The notes beneath the pieces were generated by a model. The model ran no database searches, was not told the origin of the DNA, and saw only the letters and a list, made by a program, of their open reading frames with translations. DNA of 64,000 nt, taken from the NCBI GenBank assembly GCA_963665975.1, contig OY762508.1, forward strand, positions 2,781,456-2,845,455, written 5' to 3'. Below, piece after piece: positions 5,584-35,525 of the stretch. Source of the DNA: Rhodothermales bacterium. GTDB taxonomy: Bacteria; Bacteroidota; Rhodothermia; Rhodothermales; Bin80. Both the position numbers and the translations under genes were made by a program. Position 1 is the stretch's first letter. Each line of letters starts with the position of its first letter.

Positions 5584-8500
5584 TTGATGAGTGCGAACTT
5601 GCCGACATGCTCCCCGATTCCCGGAGCTTTCACATGGAAGATGTACACGCCGAAAGCCACGTCCTGCTGCTCCTCGGTTCGCAAATCCCACCACTGGGCG
5701 CCGTCAGACGTGCCGCCGTCGTGGTGGAGTGTTTTGATCAGCTCTCCGCGGATATTGAATATTCGGATCGTGCACTGGGGTGGGAGGTGTATGAATTGCA
5801 CGCGGCGCTCGCCCCGACCCTCAATTTGCGAGCGTGGCTCAAAAGCTGAAGCTCCCACGTATGGATTAGGTACGACCGCAATTCTGTCCATTTCGTCCTT
5901 TGCCTGGTCAGCATCAATGACCGATGGACGCAGTGTAAACTGGAAGAAATCCCCCGTGGCAAAGGGGCGCAGAGCAGAAATGCGCAGGACATTACCTGCT
6001 GACGGTGGTATGGAATTGTTCGCGTCGGCAGCAGTAAATGTGATGCGGTAACGGAAGCGGCGCACGCCACGGCCGTCCAGCTGCTCATGAATGATCAGAT
6101 CATCCTCGTTGTCAAAATCACCGCTCTGGTTGGTATCCTGTATGAATAGATCCGCCAACGTGTTTTTGGTGACATTTCTGGCAAAGACCGGCACCGACAT
6201 ACGCAAAAACCCGAAAACGCGTGGCGGCCGGTAGAGCGAGTCGTCAGGCGATACCCATATCAGTTCATAGTCATCGGGGGAAGGCACGAAAGCGCTGGTT
6301 GTATCGGGGCGCACCCCAGCCACCCAGTTTGTCTGGTACCCGTCCAGCGTTCGCGGATCCACGTCGAACACCTCGTTTTGTGTGCCCTGGTTGGCTGCAT
6401 ACCCCGTGCGAACGAGATCCATTTCGCAGCCGAACGGCGGGGCGCACTCCACGTTAGTTATATCGATCGTAAAGCCCGCTGTCGGTGGCGTAGTTTCCAT
6501 GAGTGGCGAACGCGCGATGAGCGTTTCGCCGCTCGATATATTCAGGATTTCGTACGCCGTGGTTGCGTAAAGGTCCGAAGTCGGGGCAATCTGATCGCTA
6601 TAGAATCCAATCCGGTATATCGCGCCAAAATCAGCTGCGTCTTCCTGTACGACACGCACGGTTACTGATCCTGCGCCAATACCCTCCGTTACGCGGCTCA
6701 AATCCTCGTTTGTGCCCCCCTCCACGTATCCCACGGGAAGCGACCGTGGCATGACCACCGCCGCATTGCGCGAAAAGCCGGTAATGCGGCCTGCCTGGTT
6801 GACACTAATGTTGAACGGGGTTTCCTGCGGGTCTATCGGATCCTTGGAGAGATCGGTCGGATCACGGACACCGCGGTCATAGGCCGCCAGAACATAGAAG
6901 TACGTGATGCCATTGGTGACATCCTCGTCTATATAATGGAACTGCAATCCACTGTCACTGCCCAGATAGTACACGGCTTCGCCCTCCAGCACCGTTACCG
7001 GACCTTGAATGCCGTTGACGAGATCCCACTGCGCAATCGGCTTAAAGAAGGTGGCAGCACCGTCCAAATCGGTGATGGTTCGCGCGTCGAAGAGCAACGG
7101 ATCGGTGCCCTTGTACAGCCGGAACCCTTCGAAGTCGAACTCCTGAATGAAGCGGTCGAAGCTGCGGACAGCCAGTGTATCCCAACTCAATATGACACGT
7201 TCGTCGCCCGGCACAGCTGTGAGCTTGGGCAAGAACGGCGGTTGGGCGAAGTTATAGTCTGCATTGAAGATGCTCTGTGCCGTACGGCGGTTCTTGAAGA
7301 AGTCCCGCTCATCCTCGCCGAAAATCCACGCCGTCGAAAAGAAGTCAGTGCCACCTGGCTCAAGCCCCACGGGACCCGATGAGAACAGCAAGAACGGCTC
7401 CAGGTCCGCCTTGAATGCCTCCGGCTTTGTGCCGAGTGGGAACTGTGCATAGGAAATGATGCGGTCCCACATCCAGGAATCATCGCGCAGATTGTCTCCG
7501 CTCTCATAGAACGGACGCGTCTGGAGGTCGAATCCCGTCAATCCGACCTGGTCAGACTCATCAATGTCCAATTCGTCAAAATTCGGCTCACCGAGCGTAG
7601 GTATGCCGTCGGCCTCGCCATCGTCTGGGCCGCTGTAGCCCAGATCAAACGGTCCCTGCCCGTCACGCCCCACGTCGTTGTTGATAGACTCCCCTTGATC
7701 CCAGCTTCCGTTTTCGTTTTCGTCCTCGAACCCGACCCAATCGAGGTTTTCGTCTCCTGTCCACCAGCGGCCTGCGATGTAGGCCGGGCGATTCTCGATC
7801 GGACCATTGAAGGCCTCGAAGTTGGCTACATCATACATGCCCTCGACCATGGCACGGATGTTTTCCTGGCCCTCAACGAGTGTGCCGGGTCCATTGAATC
7901 GCGATTCGTCTGTAATGCCATCCTCGTCGTTGTCCAAATTGTCGAAGGCGCGCGCCGGGCTTTCCAGGAAGGCGAATCCGGTATAGCCCAGAGGATAGTT
8001 GCCCCCGGTGGGGCGAGAACCGAGTCCGTCCTGGTCCCAGCCATAGGCCACGTCCTGCTGTGGGTCAAAAGCCGCATTCTCATCGCCTTCTTCGTTACCA
8101 AGGCCGTAATCCATGATCTGGCCCAGATACAGGGCGTCATGGATCTTTTCGGTGGCGTTGGTGATGCGATAGAGAATGAACATCAGGTCCTCCGCCAGCA
8201 CGTTCGCCCATTGAAACAGGCGGACCTGAGTCTGCAGCCCCATGCCGCCAATAGTGGAGTCGCTGGCACTGGCGTAGTATACTCCGTACTCGCTGTTGGG
8301 ACGGCCGCTTTCCGTGTCAATTACGTACTCCCGGTCCGTGAAGTCGTCCATCACGTAATAGCTCTCCAAGTCCGCGTTAAATACACCGCGTCCAAAAAAG
8401 CCATTCCAACGTCCGGGCCAGCCTGGATCATCCCGGTTGTTCAGCCGATCCGGCCAAAAGTCAGGCCAGGAAGTCGGATCGTCACTGAGCGCCGGCGTGG

Positions 8501-8957: not shown

Positions 8958-11698
8958 CAGAATCGGTAGTTGAGGCCGATACTCACCTTGCGCGGCGCGC
9001 CGAAGTTTTCCTGGCGATAAAAGAATTCATCCAGCGTGTTGAGTCCGCCAACCTGGGCACCCGTCCGCCGGAAGAGCTCCAGCGTAACGGATTCGTCCGC
9101 GCGACCGGTGTCTTCGTACACGCCTACTTCCTGCACGGTGTCGAAGAGGTTCTGGACTTGCAGGAACAGTTGCAAATTGAATTTGATGAAGGGCGGCCGG
9201 TAATACGCGCGTATGTCTGTGCCAAACAACGTCGGTTTGGTCGCGTTGTTTTTCTTGATTGAGCGGATGAATTCGCGCACAGTAGTATACGGAGTGCCGC
9301 TTCGGAGCCGGTTGATGACCGTGATGGAAAGTCCGTCTACAGGCGTAACCGTAATCGTGTTGTTGAGCACATGGCGCCGGTCCCAGTCGAGGCGCACCAG
9401 TGACAGAATCTCATCAAGCCCCGCCTGTTGGCGTCCGAATGCCTCGCCTGGACTGGACGAGGTGCCCTCGGCAAACTGCAGCGTGTAATCCATCGTCCAG
9501 CTCAAGCGCCCGCCGGGCCGCTGAAAGAGCGAAAACGTGAGCCCGCGGATTGTCCCGTAGTCCCGGTTGATCCAGCGAATCACAAAGTCGCCTTGCGGCG
9601 TGCGGGAAATCTCTTGTCCCGTCAAATTCCGCACATCCTTGGAGAAGATGGTAAGCTCCATGCCAATCCGCTGCGTAAGCCCCTGTTGCAAACCAACTTC
9701 GAAGGAGAGCGTGCGCTCGGGGTTGATGCCTGGATTGCCAAAGGAATTAGACAAGGAAGCCGGGTTGATCTCGTATTCCGGGTTGGTGTAGAGCAGGCCA
9801 AAGGAGGGGATTTGAAAAAAGAGGCCGGAGGAGAAGCGCATGACGCCCGTTTCGGAAATCGGGAACGCGATACCTACTCGCGGGCTCAGTTGCATATCCA
9901 CCTTGGCCTTCTCGCGGTTGGACAGCGTCGCACCCGGGTTATTCGGGTCCGGGATTTCTTCGAGTTCCCCCTGACCCCAGTCGACAGGAGTCAGGTAGTC
10001 TGGATCGAAATAGTCAAACCGCACCCCGGCATTTACGATGAGGCCCGTAAATTCCATCTTGTCCTGCACGTAGGCGGAGAGTTCGACCGGCTTGGCCTGC
10101 AGGGTGTTGTCGGCAAACTGGTCGGGTGAAGGTTGGGGTAGGTTGCCGGTTCTGAAGGAACGCTCGATACCGAAGTCCCGGTTGTCCAACCGGTGCAGCC
10201 TTGCCTGGACGCCTACCTTCATGAGGTGCACGCGCGTCATCTGCCTGGAGAAATCCGCGACGACGGTGTGCGTGGCCGTGAGCTGGCGGCTCGTGGACAG
10301 GTTGTTGCCTCCAACGGCGAAGGCATTCGCGCCCTGCAGATTGTTGTATTCGCTAGCCACATAGCGCTCATCGAACGGTGAATCAAACAGGCGCACGTCG
10401 GTTTGGTCGTGCAGGTAACTGTAAGAGATGTTTCCGAAGGCATTGGTGCCCAGCGTGTACCGCAGACCGAGAATGTGCGTCTGATTGAAAAAATGAACGG
10501 TGTTGATTCCCTGCGGCACGTACTTGAGCGTATGGCTGTAGGGCAGGAACTGCCCCGTCTGAAAAAAGACGTTATAATCAAGGTTCACGCGTGGGGTCAG
10601 CGTGTAGCTAACGGTCCCATTGACGGATACGCGCTCGGTCCGGTTGCGAGGCGCAAACTCTCCATCGCCTGACGACGAAATAATCCATGCTTCCGGCGGT
10701 AGTCCGGTATTGAGGTTTTGGGAGGAGTCGGACGGCAAAAAGAGGTTGCGCCCGAGGAAATGCGAATTGTCCTGCAGGTAGCGCACCGTAGCCTGAATGC
10801 CCAGTTTTTCCCGAATGAGCGGACCACCGAGCGAAGCTTGTACGTCTGCCAGGTTAGGCAACGCAGAAGCCTCTGCGAAGGACACTGTATCGGGCGCAAA
10901 GTCACCGGTAGACAGTGTGCGCCCAGGCTCGGTGGTGCGGCCAATGAACTGCATTTCGCGGGTGCTGGCGATGGCGCCGGCATAGGCCAATAGCGACCCG
11001 GTCCATTTGTCCGGAACGTCCTTGGTCACAATATTCACTACGCCGCTCGTGGCTTGGCCATACTCAGCATTGAAAACACCACTTATGACCTCCAGACTGG
11101 AAACCATATTCTGCTCAATATCAAAAGCGGCCTCCTTGCTGAAAGCGTTCGTGATAGGTACGCCATTAACCAGGTAGGTGACCTCACCGGTGCGACCGCC
11201 ACGAAAATGTCCGTCCACGACACCTGCCTGCAGGTTGATGGCATCATTTACATTAGTGACAGGGAGCACCGCAAGCTGCTCCGCATCTATGACCGCGGTG
11301 GTTGTGGTGCGTCCCATTTCGACGATGGGCCGCTCGGCTACTACGACCAGTTCTTCTCCAAGCAGCGTTTCTTCCTGCAGAGAGAAGTTCACGGTCGTGG
11401 TTTGGTCCTGCACCACACGTACATTTTCGGTGGTTACAGGAGCAAATCCGACGAAGGAAGCCCGCACGCTGTATGTGGCGGGCTTCACGTTCAGGATGTG
11501 ATAGTAGCCGTCCGCATCGGTCGTGCCGCCCTGCGTGGTGCCGGCAATGACTACATTAACTCCCGGCAATCCCAAACCTGTTGCGGCTTCTGCGACACGC
11601 CCTGCGACCTTACCGGTAGGCCCCGGGGGGCGGGCCTGCAGGTGGCCCGCCCCCACGAGGACAACTACGAATGCAATTACCAGCGATTTCAGCCTCAC
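8957..11698 (-). CDS. TonB-dependent-receptor-like outer-membrane barrel with N-terminal CarboxypepD_reg domain
   Basis: After the signal peptide comes GKVAGRVAEAATGLGLPGVNVVIAGTTQGGTTDADGYYHILNVKPATYSVRASFVGF (CarboxypepD_reg). A plug-like region follows (VIDAEQL..., VEVISGVFNAEYGQATSGVVNIVTK), then a barrel with a terminal aromatic (GLNYRF). I use the GTG start at 11698 (VRLKSLVIAFVVVL...), which avoids overlap with the upstream gene. Confidence 0.85.
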   Translation of the reverse strand: MRLKSLVIAFVVVLVGAGHLQARPPGPTGKVAGRVAEAATGLGLPGVNVVIAGTTQGGTTDADGYYHILNVKPATYSVRASFVGFAPVTTENVRVVQDQTTTVNFSLQEETLLGEELVVVAERPIVEMGRTTTTAVIDAEQLAVLPVTNVNDAINLQAGVVDGHFRGGRTGEVTYLVNGVPITNAFSKEAAFDIEQNMVSSLEVISGVFNAEYGQATSGVVNIVTKDVPDKWTGSLLAYAGAIASTREMQFIGRTTEPGRTLSTGDFAPDTVSFAEASALPNLADVQASLGGPLIREKLGIQATVRYLQDNSHFLGRNLFLPSDSSQNLNTGLPPEAWIISSSGDGEFAPRNRTERVSVNGTVSYTLTPRVNLDYNVFFQTGQFLPYSHTLKYVPQGINTVHFFNQTHILGLRYTLGTNAFGNISYSYLHDQTDVRLFDSPFDERYVASEYNNLQGANAFAVGGNNLSTSRQLTATHTVVADFSRQMTRVHLMKVGVQARLHRLDNRDFGIERSFRTGNLPQPSPDQFADNTLQAKPVELSAYVQDKMEFTGLIVNAGVRFDYFDPDYLTPVDWGQGELEEIPDPNNPGATLSNREKAKVDMQLSPRVGIAFPISETGVMRFSSGLFFQIPSFGLLYTNPEYEINPASLSNSFGNPGINPERTLSFEVGLQQGLTQRIGMELTIFSKDVRNLTGQEISRTPQGDFVIRWINRDYGTIRGLTFSLFQRPGGRLSWTMDYTLQFAEGTSSSPGEAFGRQQAGLDEILSLVRLDWDRRHVLNNTITVTPVDGLSITVINRLRSGTPYTTVREFIRSIKKNNATKPTLFGTDIRAYYRPPFIKFNLQLFLQVQNLFDTVQEVGVYEDTGRADESVTLELFRRTGAQVGGLNTLDEFFYRQENFGAPRKVSIGLNYRF

Positions 11699-18818: not shown

Positions 18819-18995
18819 AGCGCGCACTTCCTTTCACTCGACGCTCTGCCGGATCCTGCAAATGTAATCGGAGCGACCAGGTGAATCTTAGTCCACGTTC
18901 GCTCTCTGTTGGAATGTGACAAGCGGTCTTACATTCTTTGCTGTCACGATACATCGCAATAGCTGCCCTACCAATTTTCTTCACCTCGGTGAATG

Positions 18996-19068
<73 letters not shown>

Positions 19069-23492: not shown

Positions 23493-23846
23493 ATGACAAG
23501 CGCAGTAAACCTTTCCGAGTCCCTCGCCCGCTTAGATGAATTCTGGAGCCCGCGGGTAGTCGGCGCCCTGAATGGGCAGCATGTCAAGCTGGCGAAGGTA
23601 TTCGGGGAATTTGTCTGGCACCGGCACGAGGAGGAAGACGAGCTCTTCCTGGTCGTAAAGGGACGCCTGCTGATCCGGCTTAAGGAAGGCGAGGTCACCG
23701 TAAAAGAGGGTGAATTCTTTATTGTCCCGCGTGGGACAGATCACCAACCTGTGGCAGAGGAGGAGGCACACATCCTGTTGTTCGAGCCGGAAACCACGCG
23801 CAGGTTGGGTGACAAGGAGGGCGTGGCGGATCCTGTGCGCGACTAG
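23493..23846 (+). CDS. Cupin-domain protein
   Basis: 117 aa with a single cupin barrel (WHRHEEEDELFLVVKGRLLIRL...EFFIVPRGTDHQPVAEEEAHILLFEP). Confidence 0.75.
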   Translation: MTSAVNLSESLARLDEFWSPRVVGALNGQHVKLAKVFGEFVWHRHEEEDELFLVVKGRLLIRLKEGEVTVKEGEFFIVPRGTDHQPVAEEEAHILLFEPETTRRLGDKEGVADPVRD

Positions 23847-23967
23847 AGACCGCCGGGTCTAAGAACTTCCAGTTCGACCGTCACGCGCGCGTAGCTGCCG
23901 AAGACGCCATGTGCGCCGCGCACGGGCTCCAGCGGATTGGGGATTTCGCCAGGCGCGAACGTAGAGC
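23843..23967 (-). pseudogene. Orphan 3'-end fragment of the DUF4249 gene (displaced copy)
   Basis: Encodes ...STFAPGEIPNPLEPVRGAHGVFGSYARVTVELEVLRPGGL*. This duplicates the last ~40 codons of the intact gene at 26830-27738, but nothing homologous lies upstream of it. Confidence 0.85.
23855..23967. repeat. 113-bp direct repeat, copy 1 (att-like boundary of island)
   Basis: gggtctaagaacttccagTtcgaccgtcacgcgcgcgtagc...gcgaacgtagagc is identical to 26842-26954 except for one t/c difference. Confidence 0.9.
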
Positions 23968-24125
23968 GTCCTGTGCATTGCTTGCAACGGTGCACGACTG
24001 GAGTGCGAAATAACGATCCCTCTGACCTGGAATCAACTCTTTTCACACGCTATCGATCTGGCGTGCTATCGTCTTTGTTCTTGCCAGCCACACCATCTCG
24101 GGCTTTTGCCCTCGACTTCCGCCAC

Positions 24126-24369
24126 TTATGGTGATTCCCAGGTTTTTCTCACGAAATCGCGCCCGTTCGGTGTTAGACGATAGAGCTGGTTCCTGCTGCG
24201 TGGTTTGTCCGGGATGGTCATTTCGATCAGCCTCGCTTCGAGGGCAGGTCGAAGGAAGATACGCGGTTGGAAAGTGGTACCGGTGAGCCCGTCCTAAAGC
24301 AGCTTGCAATTGGGTGCGGCCCATTTCGCCATTCAGGGCCACCACCAGTCGTTTGACTTGCTCGGTAGG
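24126..24369 (-). pseudogene. Decayed second C-terminal winged-helix module of the AlbA_2 protein
   Basis: In frame behind the TAA at 24370-24372: [38 protein letters not shown], then a frameshift. DNA at 24130-24360 is a close paralog of 24700-24915. A 4-bp tandem duplication (CTTC CTTC on the coding strand) breaks the frame. Repairing it restores ...[34 protein letters not shown]. Confidence 0.75.
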
Positions 24370-26112
24370 TTACTTGGCACCTTGCTTGGTGACTTGGTCG
24401 GTAGCTTGGTCGGTAGCTTGGTCGGTAGCTTGGTCGGTAGCTTGGTCGGTAGCTTGGTCGGTAGCTTGGTCGGTAGCTTGGTCGGTAGCTTGGTCGGTAG
24501 CTTGGTCGGTAACTTGGTCGGTAACTTGGTCGGTAGCTTGGTCGGTAGCTTGGTCGGTAGCTTGGTCGGTAGCTTGGTCGGTAGCTTGGTCGGTAACTTG
24601 GTCGGTAACTTGGTCGGTAACTTGTCTCGTGGCTTGCCCGGTTTCTTCCTCGGCAGAGTGATCGTTCCTTACCCGCGCCCCCATCTCGGGGTACGGTCGG
24701 AAGAGGACCGTCACGAATTCGTGTCCTTCCGGTGTCAGACGATAGCGCTGATTCTTGCTGCGTGGTTTGTCCGGGATGGTCATTTCGATCAGTCCGGCTT
24801 CGAGGGCAGGTCGAAGATACGCGGTAGTGAAGTGGTACCGGTGAGCCAGTCCTAAGGCAGATTGCAACTGGGCGCGGCCCATTTCGCCATTCAGGGCCAC
24901 CACCAGTCGTTCGACTTGCGCGGTAACTTGTTCGGTATCGTGCCCGGGTTCTTCCCTAGCAAATTGATCATGCCTTGCTTGGGTCCTCACCTCGGGATTC
25001 GGTCGGAAAATGACCGTCACAAATTCGTCGGTCACAAATTCTGGTTCCGGGCACCGCAACCCCCTGGACTCGTCGCGGATGCGCCGGATGCCGGTTCCCG
25101 CCTTCTCGATGAAGCCGATGCGGTGGAGCAGATCCGCAATCAGTGCGTTCCGTCGAACGCTGCGACGACCAAGATCGGCAAGCGACAAACCTCGGGGTAG
25201 GCCACCTGGGCTTACCACTTCGACCCGGTCGGCGTAGATCTCGACGAAGATGTTGGCACCGGCAAAGAACCAGTCCCGATGCATGACGGCGTTGGTGATC
25301 GCTTCGCGCAGTGCGTTGATTGGGTACTCGGGGATATCCTGCCGCTGGAGCCCCTCAATGCGGTAGGCCGTACGAGTATTGCGCTCGACGAATCTCAGCG
25401 CATCCTCGATGTCGGCCACGACGCCACCGTCGAAGTCCTTGCGGTCCAGGATGTGAACCTTGTCGGTACCCCTCGCCAGCAGGCAGGTGATGTAGGCCTC
25501 GGGAAAGAAATGGCGCACGTTCTTGGCGAAAAACAGCACGCCAGCGTTGCGGAAGAGCAGCGTTCTATTTACTCGCTCAGCAACCTCGATGTTGACGAGC
25601 ACGTCCTCGACCAGAGGCCAGCCGGAAATTCCAGAAAGACGAAGCCATGCATCGAACTTCTCGTGGTCAAAATCCTCCGGGTACTTGAACTCGACGCAGG
25701 GTGCCAGATCGAAGCGGACGGCGCCCTCCGCCCGAAAGAAATCGCGAATTTCCTCGCGGGTCAGCTTTTGCGTCACCGCGCCCTGCCGCCAAAAGAAGCC
25801 GTCGCTGCACTGCACGGGTTTGGAATTGCTCTCCCTGACGTGGACGGCAAACACTTGTCCGACCGGTTCCGTCCGCACCCGGACCGGTGGATCGCAGTTG
25901 CGTGCAATGTCCTGGATGCGGGCACGTAGAGTATTGGTATCCCGAACACCGGTCACGGCGCCATCGTCCCCCACACCTAGAAGAATCTTGCCGCCGATGG
26001 TGTTCGCTAGTGCCACAAGCTCTCGCGCGAACGACGACGAGAGGCGTTCCTTGAATTCGAGGGTCGTCCCTTCCCCCTCCTGGATGAGAATGTCTAGATC
26101 ATCGGGTGTCAT
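24370..26112 (-). CDS. AlbA_2 (Schlafen-like divergent AAA) + HATPase_c_4 + winged-helix protein with a TDQ[A/V] repeat tail
   Basis: Start at [56 protein letters not shown] (AlbA_2). The middle region [17 protein letters not shown]...[14 protein letters not shown]...[14 protein letters not shown] is HATPase_c_4-like. Next comes [61 protein letters not shown] (wHTH), followed by about 20 tetrapeptide repeats. Confidence 0.8.
24388..24627. repeat. 12-bp tandem repeat array, about 20 units (GGTAGCTTGGTC / GGTAACTTGGTC), in-frame coding
   Basis: Read directly: one GGTGAC unit, 9 GGTAGC, 2 GGTAAC, 5 GGTAGC, 2 GGTAAC, and one degenerate unit. On the coding (minus) strand this translates to (TDQA/TDQV)n. 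Confidence 0.95.
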
Positions 26113-26213
26113 GCGGATTCCTCGGATCGCCGGGTGATGCGAGAAGGATGGCGTGTCTTCTGAATGTAGCGCTTGATGAGGAATTCGCGTACCCAATCAT
26201 TTTCGTAACCGTC

Positions 26214-26445
26214 TCACTCGTTGAGAGTCGTAGATTCCAATGGTCTGCTCTCCGTCTGATCATCGGCGCTGTTCTGCACCCACGCGTCTACTTGCGAGGA
26301 TCAGAGCCGAAACATCTGTCCTACGCGATGTGCCGACAGGCCCTTCGTGTCGACCCATCGATTGATCGTGTCTTTGATACCTGCAGGTGGTCAGTTCCGT
26401 CCGCGATGTCAACCCAAGGTTCTTCAGATGCCAGATTCTACTGCC
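26214..26445 (-). pseudogene. Decayed excisionase-type HTH (HTH_17-like) gene upstream of the AlbA_2 gene
   Basis: My translation gives ...EEPWVDIADGTDHLQVSK | (frameshift) | DTINRWVDTKGLSAHRVGQMFRL*SSQVDAWVQNSADD. The pattern matches xLTvxEaAxyLgVSkxTiyRWvxxGxlpaxrvGxxwRFxxxevDaWl. There is no start codon, and there is one frameshift and one in-frame TGA. Confidence 0.5.
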
Positions 26446-26829
26446 TCCGTCTTCGGGTAGGCACGCCTACCGTAGATTGTACAACATCATCACCGGATCA
26501 TAAGCATCATTCAAAGTAAGGAGCACAAAAAGCACACAAATCCATCGTGTCCACCAAATCGCGCACGAAATGGGGGATATGCTGTTTCGGCATTTACTCC
26601 CGAAGCGACGAGGGCAACTATGAATCCGGAATACAAGTGTGGCCCGTGGTGTGCATAACAGCTGTACACGGTTCTAAGGATGCAGACGAGAGGACAAGAA
26701 CATCATGTGGACACCACTAATATCCGACATATAGACACTAACGGCACCCGTAGAACCCGGCCAACTGTACTTCGCACCCAAACGCACCACGATATAGTCA
26801 GCAAGGGCCGCTTCTACGGCGCAGGCCCC

Positions 26830-27738
26830 TTAGGAGCCGCTGGGTCTAAGAACTTCCAGCTCGACCGTCACGCGCGCGTAGCTGCCGAAGACGCCATGTG
26901 CGCCGCGCACGGGCTCCAGCGGATTGGGGATTTCGCCAGGCGCGAACGTAGAGCCACCCTGTTGTACGCTCTGCGACCGGAAGAAGTCGTATAGGTTGTC
27001 GTCCAGAGCGTTGATGCTAATCCGGTTGGGACCAAAGAAAACGGTTCCAATCCACGGGTAGCGTATGGTCAGCGTACCATCTGAATTGACGGCATAGTTA
27101 TTCTCATTAAGAAGGGGGGAGCCGCGCACACGCAGGTCTTCGATGGTGTCCACGCCTGCCGGCATCGCATCAAGGATAGAGGCGCCAATCGGTGTCAACT
27201 GATCTTCTCGCGGATCCAGGGATTCCGTGACAAAGATGTAGTAGTTCTGGCTGCGCCCAGGCACGCTGCTGCGCGTAACCGTGATTTCGAGTTGTTCGTT
27301 GGTTTGGTACACCGCGCGTTGCAGTGTAGCGTTGACCACGCCGAAGGTGTCAGGCACAACGGTAGTACCGGTAATGGAGGCGCCCGTCTCGGGAATAAGC
27401 ACTTCGAGTCTGTAGGTCTCCAGGGGCTGTGCCCGAGCCGCTGGACTGGCAGGCAGGTAGATGCCTGGCTGCTCCGGGTCTTCACGATACTCCTCCATGG
27501 ATCCATCGGCTTTCGTAGGATGCAGCGCTACGGTAGCGTCGCGGACGGCGAGCCTTGAAAAATCGTACGATTCGGTTACGCCGGTCGTTCGACTTAGCCG
27601 AATTGGAGGCAGTGGCTCATCGGAGACGAGAATGGCTTCAACGACGTACTCGGGTGGTAATCCACCAGGGTCTGTGCTGTCGCAGGCCGCAACGAGGCCT
27701 AACAATGTCAACACCAGGATATTCGATGGTCGTCTCAT
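26830..27738 (-). CDS. DUF4249-family lipoprotein (usual partner of CarboxypepD_reg TonB-dependent barrels)
   Basis: Lipobox (LLGLVAACDS). The C-terminal motif GEIPNPLEPVRGAHGVFGSYARVTVELEV is typical of DUF4249. It lies directly downstream of the barrel gene at 27751-30018. Confidence 0.7.
   Translation of the reverse strand: MRRPSNILVLTLLGLVAACDSTDPGGLPPEYVVEAILVSDEPLPPIRLSRTTGVTESYDFSRLAVRDATVALHPTKADGSMEEYREDPEQPGIYLPASPAARAQPLETYRLEVLIPETGASITGTTVVPDTFGVVNATLQRAVYQTNEQLEITVTRSSVPGRSQNYYIFVTESLDPREDQLTPIGASILDAMPAGVDTIEDLRVRGSPLLNENNYAVNSDGTLTIRYPWIGTVFFGPNRISINALDDNLYDFFRSQSVQQGGSTFAPGEIPNPLEPVRGAHGVFGSYARVTVELEVLRPSGS
26842..26954. repeat. 113-bp direct repeat, copy 2 (inside the intact DUF4249 gene 3' end)
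   Basis: See 23855-23967. Confidence 0.9.
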
Positions 27739-35475: not shown

Positions 35476-35517
35476 CGACACGCTGATTCAAACGGACGAC
35501 ACGCTGATTCAAACGGA
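35476..35517. repeat. Perfect 21-bp tandem duplication (cgacacgctgattcaaacgga x2) in the lat/lipA divergent intergenic region
   Basis: Read directly; the second unit ends 8 nt before the lipA start. Confidence 0.9.
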
Positions 35518-35525
35518 CGCTGTAC

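Follow-up and report, generated by a model that had tools for sequence, protein, structure and literature searches.

In the 64-kb stretch of DNA analysed here (64,000 nucleotides; hereafter the window), an intact Schlafen-type gene ends in a long run of 12-bp repeats, and a broken second copy of its winged-helix (wHTH) module lies beyond the stop codon. The locus is probably the 3' end, now in decay, of a Schlafen/HATPase_c_4/wHTH gene that was acquired horizontally and whose expanded run has been left as the tail of the protein. In this window, the array would mark what is left of a ruined second DNA-binding module, in an accessory gene that was inserted recently. The anatomy of the gene, its homologies, the variability within its family and the insertion that carries it are all directly observable, and the features concerned are collected in Table 1.

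Table 1. Positions of the features of the locus, in window coordinates
Feature	Position	Strand	Basis
Strain-specific insertion, 2,866 bp, carrying the cassette	23968..26833		megablast against empty-site contigs L085 and L086; gene maps
Left 122-bp direct repeat, native DUF4249 3' end, now orphaned	23846..23967		direct repeat D3; empty-site comparison
Right 122-bp direct repeat, current 3' end of the DUF4249 gene	26834..26955		empty-site comparison
HTH_17 (excisionase/AlpA-type) pseudogene, upstream of the Schlafen gene	26259..26413	-	frameshift near 26375, in-frame TGA 26301-26303
Intact ORF, prokaryotic Schlafen	24370..26112	-	580 aa + TAA; ORF list, Pfam, homologue alignments
Predicted Schlafen catalytic motif E14-x4-E19-x-K21 (EGTTLEFK)	26050..26073	-	alignment A2 and published motif definition
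Module 1: two TxQV units (TEQV, TAQV) and live Fic-like_C wHTH	24715..24936	-	Pfam; 4RGL C-terminus match; AF2 pLDDT 94-97
Linker 2 (29 residues), copy of linker 1 (~24914-25028)	24636..24722	-	direct repeat D4, 76% identical, spacing 306
12-bp array	24373..24635	-	19 exact units (24393-24620) and degenerate edge units
TAA stop within a degenerate unit (GCC AAG TAA CCT)	24370..24372	-	unit comparison direct from the sequence
Dead module 2: one TEQV unit, wHTH pseudo-copy, ancestral C-terminus (...LTPNGRDFVRKTWESP, TAA 24126-24128)	24126..24369	-	Pfam, direct repeats, codon comparison
CTTC-CTTC, 4-bp duplication frameshifting wHTH2	24251..24258	-	frame reading; repeat spacing 558 vs 562 bp

A Schlafen gene ending in a repeat run

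An upstream TTG at 26196 would extend the ORF to a 608-aa version (ORF 24370-26196, minus strand), and alignments with homologues begin at about M29 of this longer form. Pfam places SLFN_AlbA_2 first (PF04326; 3.1e-18, 66.9 bits against a cut-off of 25.3, residues 42-145 of the 608-aa ORF), followed by HATPase_c_4 (6e-22), a Fic-like_C wHTH (1.2e-26) and a low-complexity tail of 114 aa. The core of the ORF also matches PDB 3LMM. The catalytic motif of prokaryotic Schlafen proteins (pSlfn) given in passages of PMC13056530, Ex4(E/D)xK, is intact as E14-GTTL-E19-F-K21; in alignment A2, which contains 53 homologues, E19 and K21 are invariant and E14 is at least 90% conserved. Judged by its predicted domains, the gene is a pSlfn of the 'HisKinase-HTH' type, and its product may be expected to act in defence as a tRNase. 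The sequence-only reading had described an AlbA_2/Schlafen-like ATPase. Both the AlbA_2 and the HATPase_c_4 domains are indeed recognised by Pfam, but the term ATPase is sustained as a domain label and not as more than that. PADLOC sees partial domain matches to pAgo/Aga models at the locus and assigns no system, and an NCBIfam search returns nothing meaningful.

The array that ends this ORF consists of 19 back-to-back CTTGGTCGGTAR units, where 0.01 are expected from shuffled sequences. TRF reports it as a single array at 24393-24624 (period 12, 19.3 copies, 98% matches, score 429) and finds no other substantial tandem array in the window. On the minus strand the unit reads ACC GAC CAA GYT, encoding TDQA or TDQV in frame, as the sequence-only reading had proposed. 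In the direction of translation, three QVTD units are followed by five QATD, two QVTD and nine QATD units, then by QVTK, QGAK and the TAA stop. The order of the blocks on the plus strand is accordingly 9-2-5-3, and not 9-2-5-2 as first described, and the run comprises 20-22 units when its degenerate flanks are counted (QATR upstream; QVTK and QGAK downstream). The claim that the ORF stops immediately after the array is correct to within the two degenerate units, and comparison with the canonical unit suggests that the stop plausibly arose by a CAA to TAA change.

The 114-residue tail is rich in T, Q, D and A. The AF2 model of the whole protein is poor (mean pLDDT 59); wHTH1 is modelled with confidence (pLDDT 94-97), whereas the run has no confident structure (pLDDT <50).

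Past the TAA, the frame of the array runs on for 38 residues and then shifts at the duplicated CTTC. Two direct repeats flank this point: positions 24255-24385 are 86% identical to 24813-24943 at a spacing of 558 bp, and positions 24149-24254 are 89% identical to 24711-24816 at a spacing of 562 bp. The difference in spacing confirms the 4-bp insertion. Once repaired, wHTH2 is 83% identical (58/70) to wHTH1, which bears out the proposal that the array is followed by a second copy of the module broken by a CTTC duplication. Even the unrepaired remnant, whose reading frame covers just the first half of the domain, matches Fic-like_C in Pfam (1.4e-6, 28.5 bits). Two tandem modules, each a leader run with a Fic-like_C domain, thus exist in the DNA, but the TAA and the 4-bp duplication keep them out of a single frame. 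On its 5' side, the 306-bp duplication of the module is bounded by linker 2. An internal GTG could in principle open a separate ORF (24043-24345) for the wHTH2 remnant; this candidate was rejected, as after 30 residues its translation passes into the shifted frame.

Between the two wHTH copies there are 12 amino-acid changes, three of which fall at positions that are invariant or at least 90% conserved (L422R, G440R and R456L). At the codon level, 7 synonymous stand against 12 non-synonymous changes; the resulting pN/pS of roughly 0.5-0.6, a ratio of small counts, is no more than mildly suggestive of relaxed constraint. The copies have diverged by 10.5%, whereas a single site varies across the 19 array units. 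The array is therefore younger than the module duplication, in agreement with the recent slippage or expansion that had been suggested for it.

It could be argued that the copy number is wrong, or that the TAA and the 4-bp duplication are false and conceal an intact two-wHTH gene. The 240 bp of near-perfect 12-bp repeats exceed short-read k-mer sizes, and in some homologue clusters the gene is split at the array (P0166/P0167, P0169/P0170, P0159/P0160), which could likewise reflect sequencing errors. However, such an assembly or sequencing artefact would have to produce two independent lesions of different kinds together with the three substitutions at conserved positions of wHTH2, and the same insert carries a second pseudogene (HTH_17). 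The interspersed V-type units also provide internal landmarks within the array. Nor do homopolymer sequencing errors typically take the form of a 4-bp tandem duplication or a C-to-T change, and this too counts against an artefact, which we consider improbable.

Repeat and module number across the family

A 12-bp array occupies the equivalent position in 59 of 80 homologous loci, and the array-bearing loci span 31-78% protein identity. Seventeen of these 59 arrays are 100% perfect. Copy number has a median of 4.1 and a range of 2.2-15.4, and the 19 units of the present locus lie far beyond it. The length of the TxQV run varies by whole units even inside clusters of at least 90% identity, for instance among the proteins of 468-525 aa in the P0060 cluster and those of 477-528 aa in the P0041 cluster; in another cluster of this kind, a 7-aa unit is present in about 6 copies in P0049 and in 19 copies in P0168. 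The idea of a length-variable region thus holds at the level of the family, while at this locus itself the relatives are without the insert.

The number of wHTH modules varies in the same manner. Within clusters of at least 90% identity, proteins carry either one or two (586 vs 487, 562 vs 468 and 580 vs 487 aa), and proteins with up to 8 matched modules are found; cluster representatives that bear the module number roughly 5,000. The search for homologues that keep both wHTH modules yielded P0001-P0008, P0013, P0038 and P0099; each of their modules follows TxQV-type repeats, which lends weight to the ancestral wHTH-repeat-wHTH layout put forward in the sequence-only reading. The duplication units in two-module homologues differ in size (282, 306 and 330 bp), and the duplications are therefore possibly independent events. 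A TxQV leader run precedes the wHTH in single-module proteins too. As a leader typical of the family, the run stands before every Fic-like_C wHTH and is not special to this locus.

Inside the arrays, codon usage is strongly non-random across the family, with near-universal CAA/GAA/ACC/GTY, and this bias is unexplained by genome composition. It hints at a constraint beyond simple neutral slippage. Together with the retention of the run across such divergent proteins and with the intact core ORF and catalytic motif of the present gene, it would agree with an expanded run that is selected as a functional element, for example as a flexible acidic tail with an autoinhibitory or tuning effect on the Schlafen nuclease, or as a spacer of adaptive length, a 'ruler'. 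In this allele, however, the stop and the frameshift leave nothing functional downstream, and the run lacks a confident predicted structure. Its length, so far outside the family range, is what is expected after loss of a length constraint, and the partner HTH_17 gene has decayed too. We therefore regard a selected function of the expanded run as unlikely.

Still less credible, to the point of being very improbable, is the reading as a classical simple-sequence contingency locus that turns the gene, or its second wHTH, on or off through changes in repeat number. A tandem repeat that lies in the coding region of an accessory, defence-type gene and varies in number across the family is reminiscent of such loci, but slippage by a 12-bp unit never shifts the frame. 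To restore wHTH2, the TAA would have to revert and the CTTC duplication would also have to be lost, and no homologue set contains frame-switching alleles attributable to unit number. The contingency role suggested from the sequence fails in its on/off sense, since the unit preserves the frame.

Decay of an acquired gene, the reading that we prefer, would have proceeded as follows. The T-x-(Q/E)-V run of 12-bp repeats before each Fic-like_C wHTH acts as a hotspot of slippage or unequal recombination, and the whole linker-run-wHTH module is likewise gained and lost in the family. Duplication of a 306-bp module in the cassette lineage would have given a wHTH-run-wHTH protein. The run ahead of the second wHTH would then have grown by about 252 bp to 19 homogeneous units, an expansion that probably included one duplication of a 7-unit (84-bp) block. 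A degenerate unit at the run's 3' edge would have acquired a stop, and the CTTC duplication would have frameshifted wHTH2, leaving the present product, a single-wHTH Schlafen protein with a tail of 114 residues. In all likelihood the function of the tail itself is negligible, if it has one. Both the order of these events and a neutral tail are inferred; taken by itself, the locus is a case of ordinary decay. A point against decay is that the core ORF is intact, and the gene, possibly with its tail, may remain under selection.

Relation to known systems

The pSlfn HisKinase-HTH proteins treated in passages of PMC13056530 share with the present gene PF04326 with its Ex4(E/D)xK motif, the His-kinase-like ATPase domain (HATPase_c_4) and a C-terminal HTH. 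Those passages make no mention of a run of repeats or of wHTH modules in tandem. They place HisKinase-HTH fusions outside the four architectures tested, and the two constructs that gave protection were not HisKinase fusions. The gene described here differs from them as a lone insertion among housekeeping genes with a dead second wHTH.

Fic proteins with Fic-like_C (PF21247) share this C-terminal cassette. The sequence of PDB 4RGL (...TDHVGDQVTDQV-AALIRAI...IERTQPDSPRSPTQRYRLT) aligns to module 1 with E = 2.5e-13, and its TxQV units stand directly before the wHTH, as in Schlafen module 1. However, the N-terminal part of 4RGL has the Fic AMPylase fold, not Schlafen and HATPase_c_4, and the protein has only one module, with about 2 units.

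A parallel for the repeat is found in HsdS of the type IC restriction enzymes EcoR124I/II, where a 12-bp TAEL repeat (4 aa) lies between two DNA-recognition domains (PMC3874165). In both cases an in-frame 12-bp unit occurs in a defence-type protein, and in HsdS unequal crossing-over changes the number of copies while the frame is kept (PMC3874165). The TAEL repeat is present in 2-3 copies, forms a structured coiled-coil helix and has a demonstrated effect on DNA spacer length. In contrast, the run described here has 19 units, is modelled by AF2 with a pLDDT below 50 and precedes a dead domain, although its position between two wHTH modules holds ancestrally.

A literature search retrieved no paper containing the 16-residue repeat string or similar strings; in the searchable literature this repeat is undescribed, and COG2865 and the AlbA_2+HATPase_c_4 combination are barely mentioned. 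One of the two commonest architectures of a newly recognised bacterial Schlafen defence family, together with some Fic proteins, combines a hypervariable in-frame microsatellite with a C-terminal wHTH of variable copy number. If this variability alters target or trigger specificity, it would provide a simple mutational route to diversify a defence sensor. The T-x-(Q/E)-V run may be a conserved, deliberately unstable 'evolvability' element in Schlafen-HisKinase-HTH and Fic proteins. The number of units and of wHTH modules (1 to 8 or more) would then tune the reach or spacing of DNA-binding or sensor domains, in the manner of TAEL in EcoR124I/II, and the codon choice would result from selection at the level of DNA, mRNA or tRNA. 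We put this forward as a speculative proposal with a small chance of being right. A possible route is that a run of codons read by xm5s2U34-tRNA, placed in a predicted tRNase gene, couples translation of the C-terminal domain to tRNA integrity.

The insertion and its surroundings

The Schlafen gene is horizontally acquired and strain-specific. Two 98.5-99.6%-identical contigs (L085 and L086) carry the empty site, which is also found in L087, and 122-bp direct repeats border the insert on both sides. The view of an accessory gene on a mobile segment is therefore supported. The neighbours in the window are dapA, dapB, a cupin gene, the DUF4249 gene and a TonB-receptor gene. The right repeat has five differences in the stop-proximal ~35 nt, which change the C-terminus of the DUF4249 product from PGGL to PSGS.

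The cassette consists of the HTH_17 pseudogene and the Schlafen gene, and intact HTH_17 counterparts are found upstream of the Schlafen homologues in L002, L082 and L083. No integrase or recombinase is present between 23968 and 26833 as judged from the ORF listing, Pfam searches of selected products and six-frame tblastn of the non-coding flanks against homologous loci; these two genes are all that is recognised. Scans for promoters and terminators stay at background level, and Rfam reports just one tRNA.

Integrative genomic islets, which insert at a 3' end and supply a replacement for it, are likewise present in a strain-specific manner. The resemblance extends to the 122-bp duplicate of the target 3' end, to the slight divergence of the copy on the insert side and to the excisionase-type HTH_17 gene. 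However, the 2.87-kb insert is without a recombinase, and its 122-bp repeats are long for att cores. That a circle integrated by homologous recombination of the Campbell type is as possible as site-specific integration.

A wider distribution of the cassette was sought by protein look-ups and a metagenome scan, and no other strain carrying it was found. Exact-protein look-ups of the 580-aa, 608-aa and DUF4249 products found nothing on record, and in the metagenomes the lineage-specific linker-2 peptide matched as a pattern 521 times, with no relative among the hits. Proteins of AlbA_2-HATPase_c_4 architecture had been thought common on mobile elements. This does not hold for the records searched: homologues are infrequent on plasmids (165 of 72,556 records) and in phages (35 of 50,697), and all are distant. 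As for the genomic settings of homologues, P0010 lies in a defence island with GmrSD, ResIII/DEAD, TIR and Cas1/Cas3 genes, and P0002 and P0004 lie outside defence islands.

Flanking direct repeats are absent around the homologues in L001, L002, L033, L039, L081, L082 and L084; the 122-bp duplication is therefore specific to this insertion. The sole exception among the homologues checked is L012, with a 77-nt repeat pair of 79% identity.

The Schlafen gene and its degenerate second module

The Schlafen ORF matches the Pfam families SLFN_AlbA_2 (3.1e-18), HATPase_c_4 (6e-22) and Fic-like_C (PF21247, a winged helix, wHTH; 1.2e-26). Its likely product has 580 residues and starts with MTPDDLDI, since homologue alignments begin at M29 of the long ORF. 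The product contains E14-x4-E19-x-K21; according to PMC13056530, an Ex4(E/D)xK catalytic motif defines prokaryotic Schlafen (pSlfn) nucleases, and Slfn plus 'HisKinase-HTH' is their second commonest composition (19.2% of all pSlfns). By its domains the window gene fits this composition, and it is a further member of an already known class. That paper reports defence for a DUF262 fusion and an Ig-like fusion only; the four architectures that it put to the test did not include HisKinase-HTH fusions. For the window protein, family membership would thus suggest a role in defence or as a tRNase. PADLOC returns only partial matches, to pAgo/Aga models with the common Schlafen-plus-ATPase region. In a structure database search the protein core matches PDB 3LMM, and the C-terminal module matches the end of the Fic protein 4RGL together with its 'DQVTDQV' leader. 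AlphaFold pLDDT is 94-97 over wHTH1, the module ahead of the array, and below 50 for 104 residues from 477 on. As it stands today, the protein is an ordinary pSlfn with one wHTH and, behind it, a tail of 114 residues rich in T, Q, D and A.

The window-wide repeat scan finds a single substantial tandem array, where the sequence-only reading had placed it. Tandem Repeats Finder (TRF) locates it at 24393-24624 (period 12, 19.3 copies, 98% matches, score 429), and CTTGGTCGGTAR recurs head to tail 19 times in 24393-24620; dinucleotide-preserving shuffles would lead one to expect 0.01 occurrences. On the + strand the blocks of the two variants, which end in G or A, run 9-2-5-3 rather than 9-2-5-2 as first read. 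The minus-strand frame runs QATR, QVTD x3, QATD x5, QVTD x2, QATD x9, QVTK and QGAK to a TAA at 24372-24370. In gene orientation the units follow the order V V V A A A A A V V A A A A A A A A A, which would fit one duplication of a 7-unit (84-bp) block plus single-unit steps. The 19 core units vary at one site only. The stop-bearing edge unit is degenerate (GCC AAG TAA CCT versus the core ACC GAC CAA GCT); the simplest origin of the stop would be CAA to TAA. A perfect 21-bp repeat of 2.1 copies lies elsewhere in the window (35476-35519).

Past the TAA, 38 more residues follow in the same frame, which is then lost at a CTTC/CTTC duplication. The second wHTH and the CTTC duplication proposed earlier are borne out by the direct repeats, whose spacing changes from 558 to 562 bp. 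From the three repeat pairs and their spacings, the duplicated unit is a 306-bp module comprising an EFVTVxFRP linker, a run of T-x-(Q/E)-V units (TxQV run) and a wHTH. The array alone makes the second copy 252 bp (21 x 12) longer than the first. With 4 bp removed, its wHTH (wHTH2) is 83% identical (58/70) to wHTH1 and ends in ...LTPNGRDFVRKTWESP, followed by an ancestral TAA at 24126-24128, precisely the left limit chosen in the sequence-only reading. Even unrepaired, with only the first half-domain in frame, the remnant matches Fic-like_C at 1.4e-6 (Pfam). The two wHTH copies differ at 10.5% of nucleotides (22/210) and 12 amino acids; L422R, G440R and R456L in wHTH2 hit positions invariant or at least 90% conserved among 53 homologues. 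The 7 synonymous and 12 non-synonymous codon differences (~53 and ~157 sites) are small counts, suggestive of relaxed constraint on wHTH2.

Coordinates of features in the window and in homologous loci (L-numbers)
Feature	Coordinates	Strand	Remark
Host ORF of array	24370-26196	-	ORF listing
Array with edge units	24373-24635	-	repeat run; biased codons
Linker preceding the run, direct repeat	24608-24722 / 24914-25028		76% identical, spacing 306 bp
Module, direct repeat	24255-24385 / 24813-24943		86% identical, spacing 558 bp
Module, direct repeat	24149-24254 / 24711-24816		89% identical, spacing 562 bp (+4 bp)
CTTC/CTTC duplication	24251-24258		frame lost
HTH_17 (excisionase/AlpA-type) pseudogene	26259-26413	-	frameshift near 26375, in-frame TGA 26301-26303
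Left 122-bp direct repeat	23846-23967		native copy
Right 122-bp direct repeat	26834-26955		present 3' end of DUF4249 gene
DUF4249 gene	26830-27738		3' end is the 122-bp repeat
L019 array	7162-7280		biased codons
L004 array	7163-7226		biased codons
L015 array	7138-7322		biased codons

Repeat runs and modules among homologues

The closest relatives of the window protein are only 66-78% identical (loci L001-L039) and come from at least eight phyla, with taxa including Gammaproteobacteria, Latescibacterota, Caldilineae, Gemmatimonadota, Binatia and Spirochaetia. This scatter points to extensive horizontal transfer and would imply a wide, recent spread of the lineage. Judging from naming styles, many of these homologues presumably stem from marine or sponge-associated MAG projects.

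A 12-bp-period array precedes the wHTH at the equivalent position in 59 of 80 homologous loci (TRF), with 2.2-15.4 copies (median 4.1); 17 arrays are 100% perfect in DNA. Their units encode TPQV, TGEV, TDQV, TPEV, TMED and similar tetrapeptides. The repeat is therefore a hallmark of the family and no oddity of the window locus. The proposal of a length-variable region agrees with whole-unit differences inside clusters of at least 90% identity (468-525 aa around protein P0060, 477-528 aa around P0041). In another such cluster a 7-residue unit occurs in about 6 copies in P0049 versus 19 in P0168. Whole wHTH modules are also gained or lost at this identity (586 vs 487, 562 vs 468 and 580 vs 487 aa). 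Fixed repeat numbers and a uniformly absent second wHTH would have spoken against the earlier reading; these clusters show the opposite, and the search for homologues keeping both modules found P0001-P0008, P0013, P0038 and P0099 intact among the best matches. Two-module duplications have units of 282 and 330 bp, against 306 bp in the window, with copies 84-94% identical, and may be independent events. A complete HMMER search using module 1 gave 5,076 cluster representatives, some of which match it two, three and as many as eight times; P0331 (801 aa) has 8 matched Fic-like_C stretches and is almost wholly tandem modules. P0332 and P0358 likewise consist largely of such modules, and P0348 joins one, by eye, to an LRR-like N-terminus.

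Three pairs from clusters at 90% identity or more (P0166/P0167, P0169/P0170 and P0159/P0160) show a gene that appears to break at the run, leaving a shortened core and, apart from it, a wHTH ORF of 64-74 aa. Within two of these pairs the contig size in the cluster table is the same. Either the array suffers genuine lesions repeatedly, or its repeats were misread in sequencing. An 18-bp-period array of 72.7 copies (75% matches) begins some 1 kb past one Latescibacterota homologue on its downstream side (L007, 8374-9651).

In the 59 loci and the window, the arrays use codons very differently from the remainder of their genes.

Codon usage inside and outside the arrays
Codon	Arrays	First 350 codons	Downstream wHTH
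Gln as CAA	93% (137 CAA : 10 CAG)	30%	42%
Glu as GAA	88% (109 GAA : 15 GAG)	43%	64%
Thr as ACC	86%	51%	50%
Val as GTG	5% (GTC/GTT 93%)	46%	21%

A-ending Gln/Glu codons are preferred in 48 loci and G-ending ones in 3 (binomial p 2e-11, which is too strong because the loci are phylogenetically non-independent). The window array and tail have 22 CAA and no CAG, the upstream part 7 and 8. Possible sources are a founder effect combined with concerted evolution in a module that moves horizontally; slippage that depends on the sequence, so that slip-prone units are the survivors; or selection at the DNA, mRNA or tRNA level.

Origin of the long array and its nearest analogue

The window array, with 19 homogeneous units, exceeds all others seen; among the loci, 15.4 (86% matches) and 9.9 (perfect) come next, and under strict scoring the longest homogeneous run in 480 fetched proteins is 5.8 units. 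We infer that a 306-bp module duplication would have produced wHTH-run-wHTH, and that slippage or unequal recombination would have lengthened the run of the second copy. One variable site in 19 units, against 10.5% wHTH divergence, means either that the homogeneous core arose long after the module was duplicated, or that its units are being homogenised all the time. The probable explanation is slippage and unequal recombination, neutral or nearly so, in a microsatellite typical of the family, at about the time when the downstream module was lost or later. Extreme length is expected once nothing useful lies downstream and the length constraint is gone. That the array is instead a functional tail or ruler agrees with its retention across the family and its odd codon usage, but seems doubtful for a run far longer than any relative's with nothing functional behind it. 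An on/off contingency switch is ruled out by the 12-bp unit and deserves next to no credence.

The nearest functional analogue is the 12-bp TAEL repeat of EcoR124I/II HsdS, where the DNA spacer that is recognised depends on whether there are 2 or 3 copies (PMC3874165). TAEL is short and structured, with a demonstrated effect, whereas the window run is long, lacks a confident predicted structure and precedes nothing. The searchable literature yielded no paper on the TxQV run or on module copy-number variation. The family-wide variable run is a moderately interesting, undescribed form of a known feature type, the length-polymorphic interdomain linker. The window locus itself amounts to the ordinary decay of a recently inserted gene.

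The insertion that carries the gene

The gene lies within a 2,866-bp segment (23968-26833) between 122-bp direct repeats. Two Logan assemblies, L085 (ERR3887492) and L086 (ERR3887490), match the window at 98.5-99.6% on both flanks and encode a 99% identical DUF4249 protein. In L085 its gene is directly followed by cupin, dapA, dapB and aspartokinase genes; L086 stops inside the cupin gene. Each of the two has a single copy of the 122 bp (at 10785-10906 in both) and so an empty site; the site is also empty in the more distant L087 (88-90% identical). The insertion is strain-specific. The right repeat copy has 5 differences in the stop-proximal ~35 nt, changing the DUF4249 C-terminus from PGGL* to PSGS*. 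The incoming DNA therefore carried its own, diverged version of the target gene's end, as expected of attP-type or Campbell-type homologous integration of a circle. No recombinase was recognised in 23968-26833 by ORF listing and family scans of selected products.

The only feature recognised ahead of the Schlafen gene in the insert is the HTH_17 pseudogene. An assembly artefact, in the array or in the broken second module, is unlikely given this other pseudogene in the same insert, two lesions of different kinds, and the conserved-site substitutions in wHTH2. In L002 (5505-5741) and L082/L083 (7603-7830) an intact HTH_17 gene lies ahead of the homologue, suggesting a possible two-gene cassette. 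Since host divergence is at most 1.5%, the module divergence (10%) predates arrival in the window genome, and the cassette was probably already partly decayed on arrival.

In L082/L083 this pair of HTH_17 gene and homologue sits in a defence island with GmrSD, ResIII/DEAD, TIR and Cas1/Cas3 genes; other homologues are solitary amid housekeeping genes. The gene type, taken earlier to be common on mobile elements, is present on plasmids and phages but not common there: distant homologues (25-35% identical) occur in 165 of 72,556 plasmid and 35 of 50,697 phage records. In a Caldilineales contig (L012) the homologous gene lies between the two copies of a 77-nt direct repeat (293-369 and 2252-2328, 79% identical), which could be another insertion scar or a dispersed intergenic repeat. 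In the window, a tRNA-Ala(GGC) gene (18995-19068, minus strand) lies 5 kb from the insertion, off its boundary.
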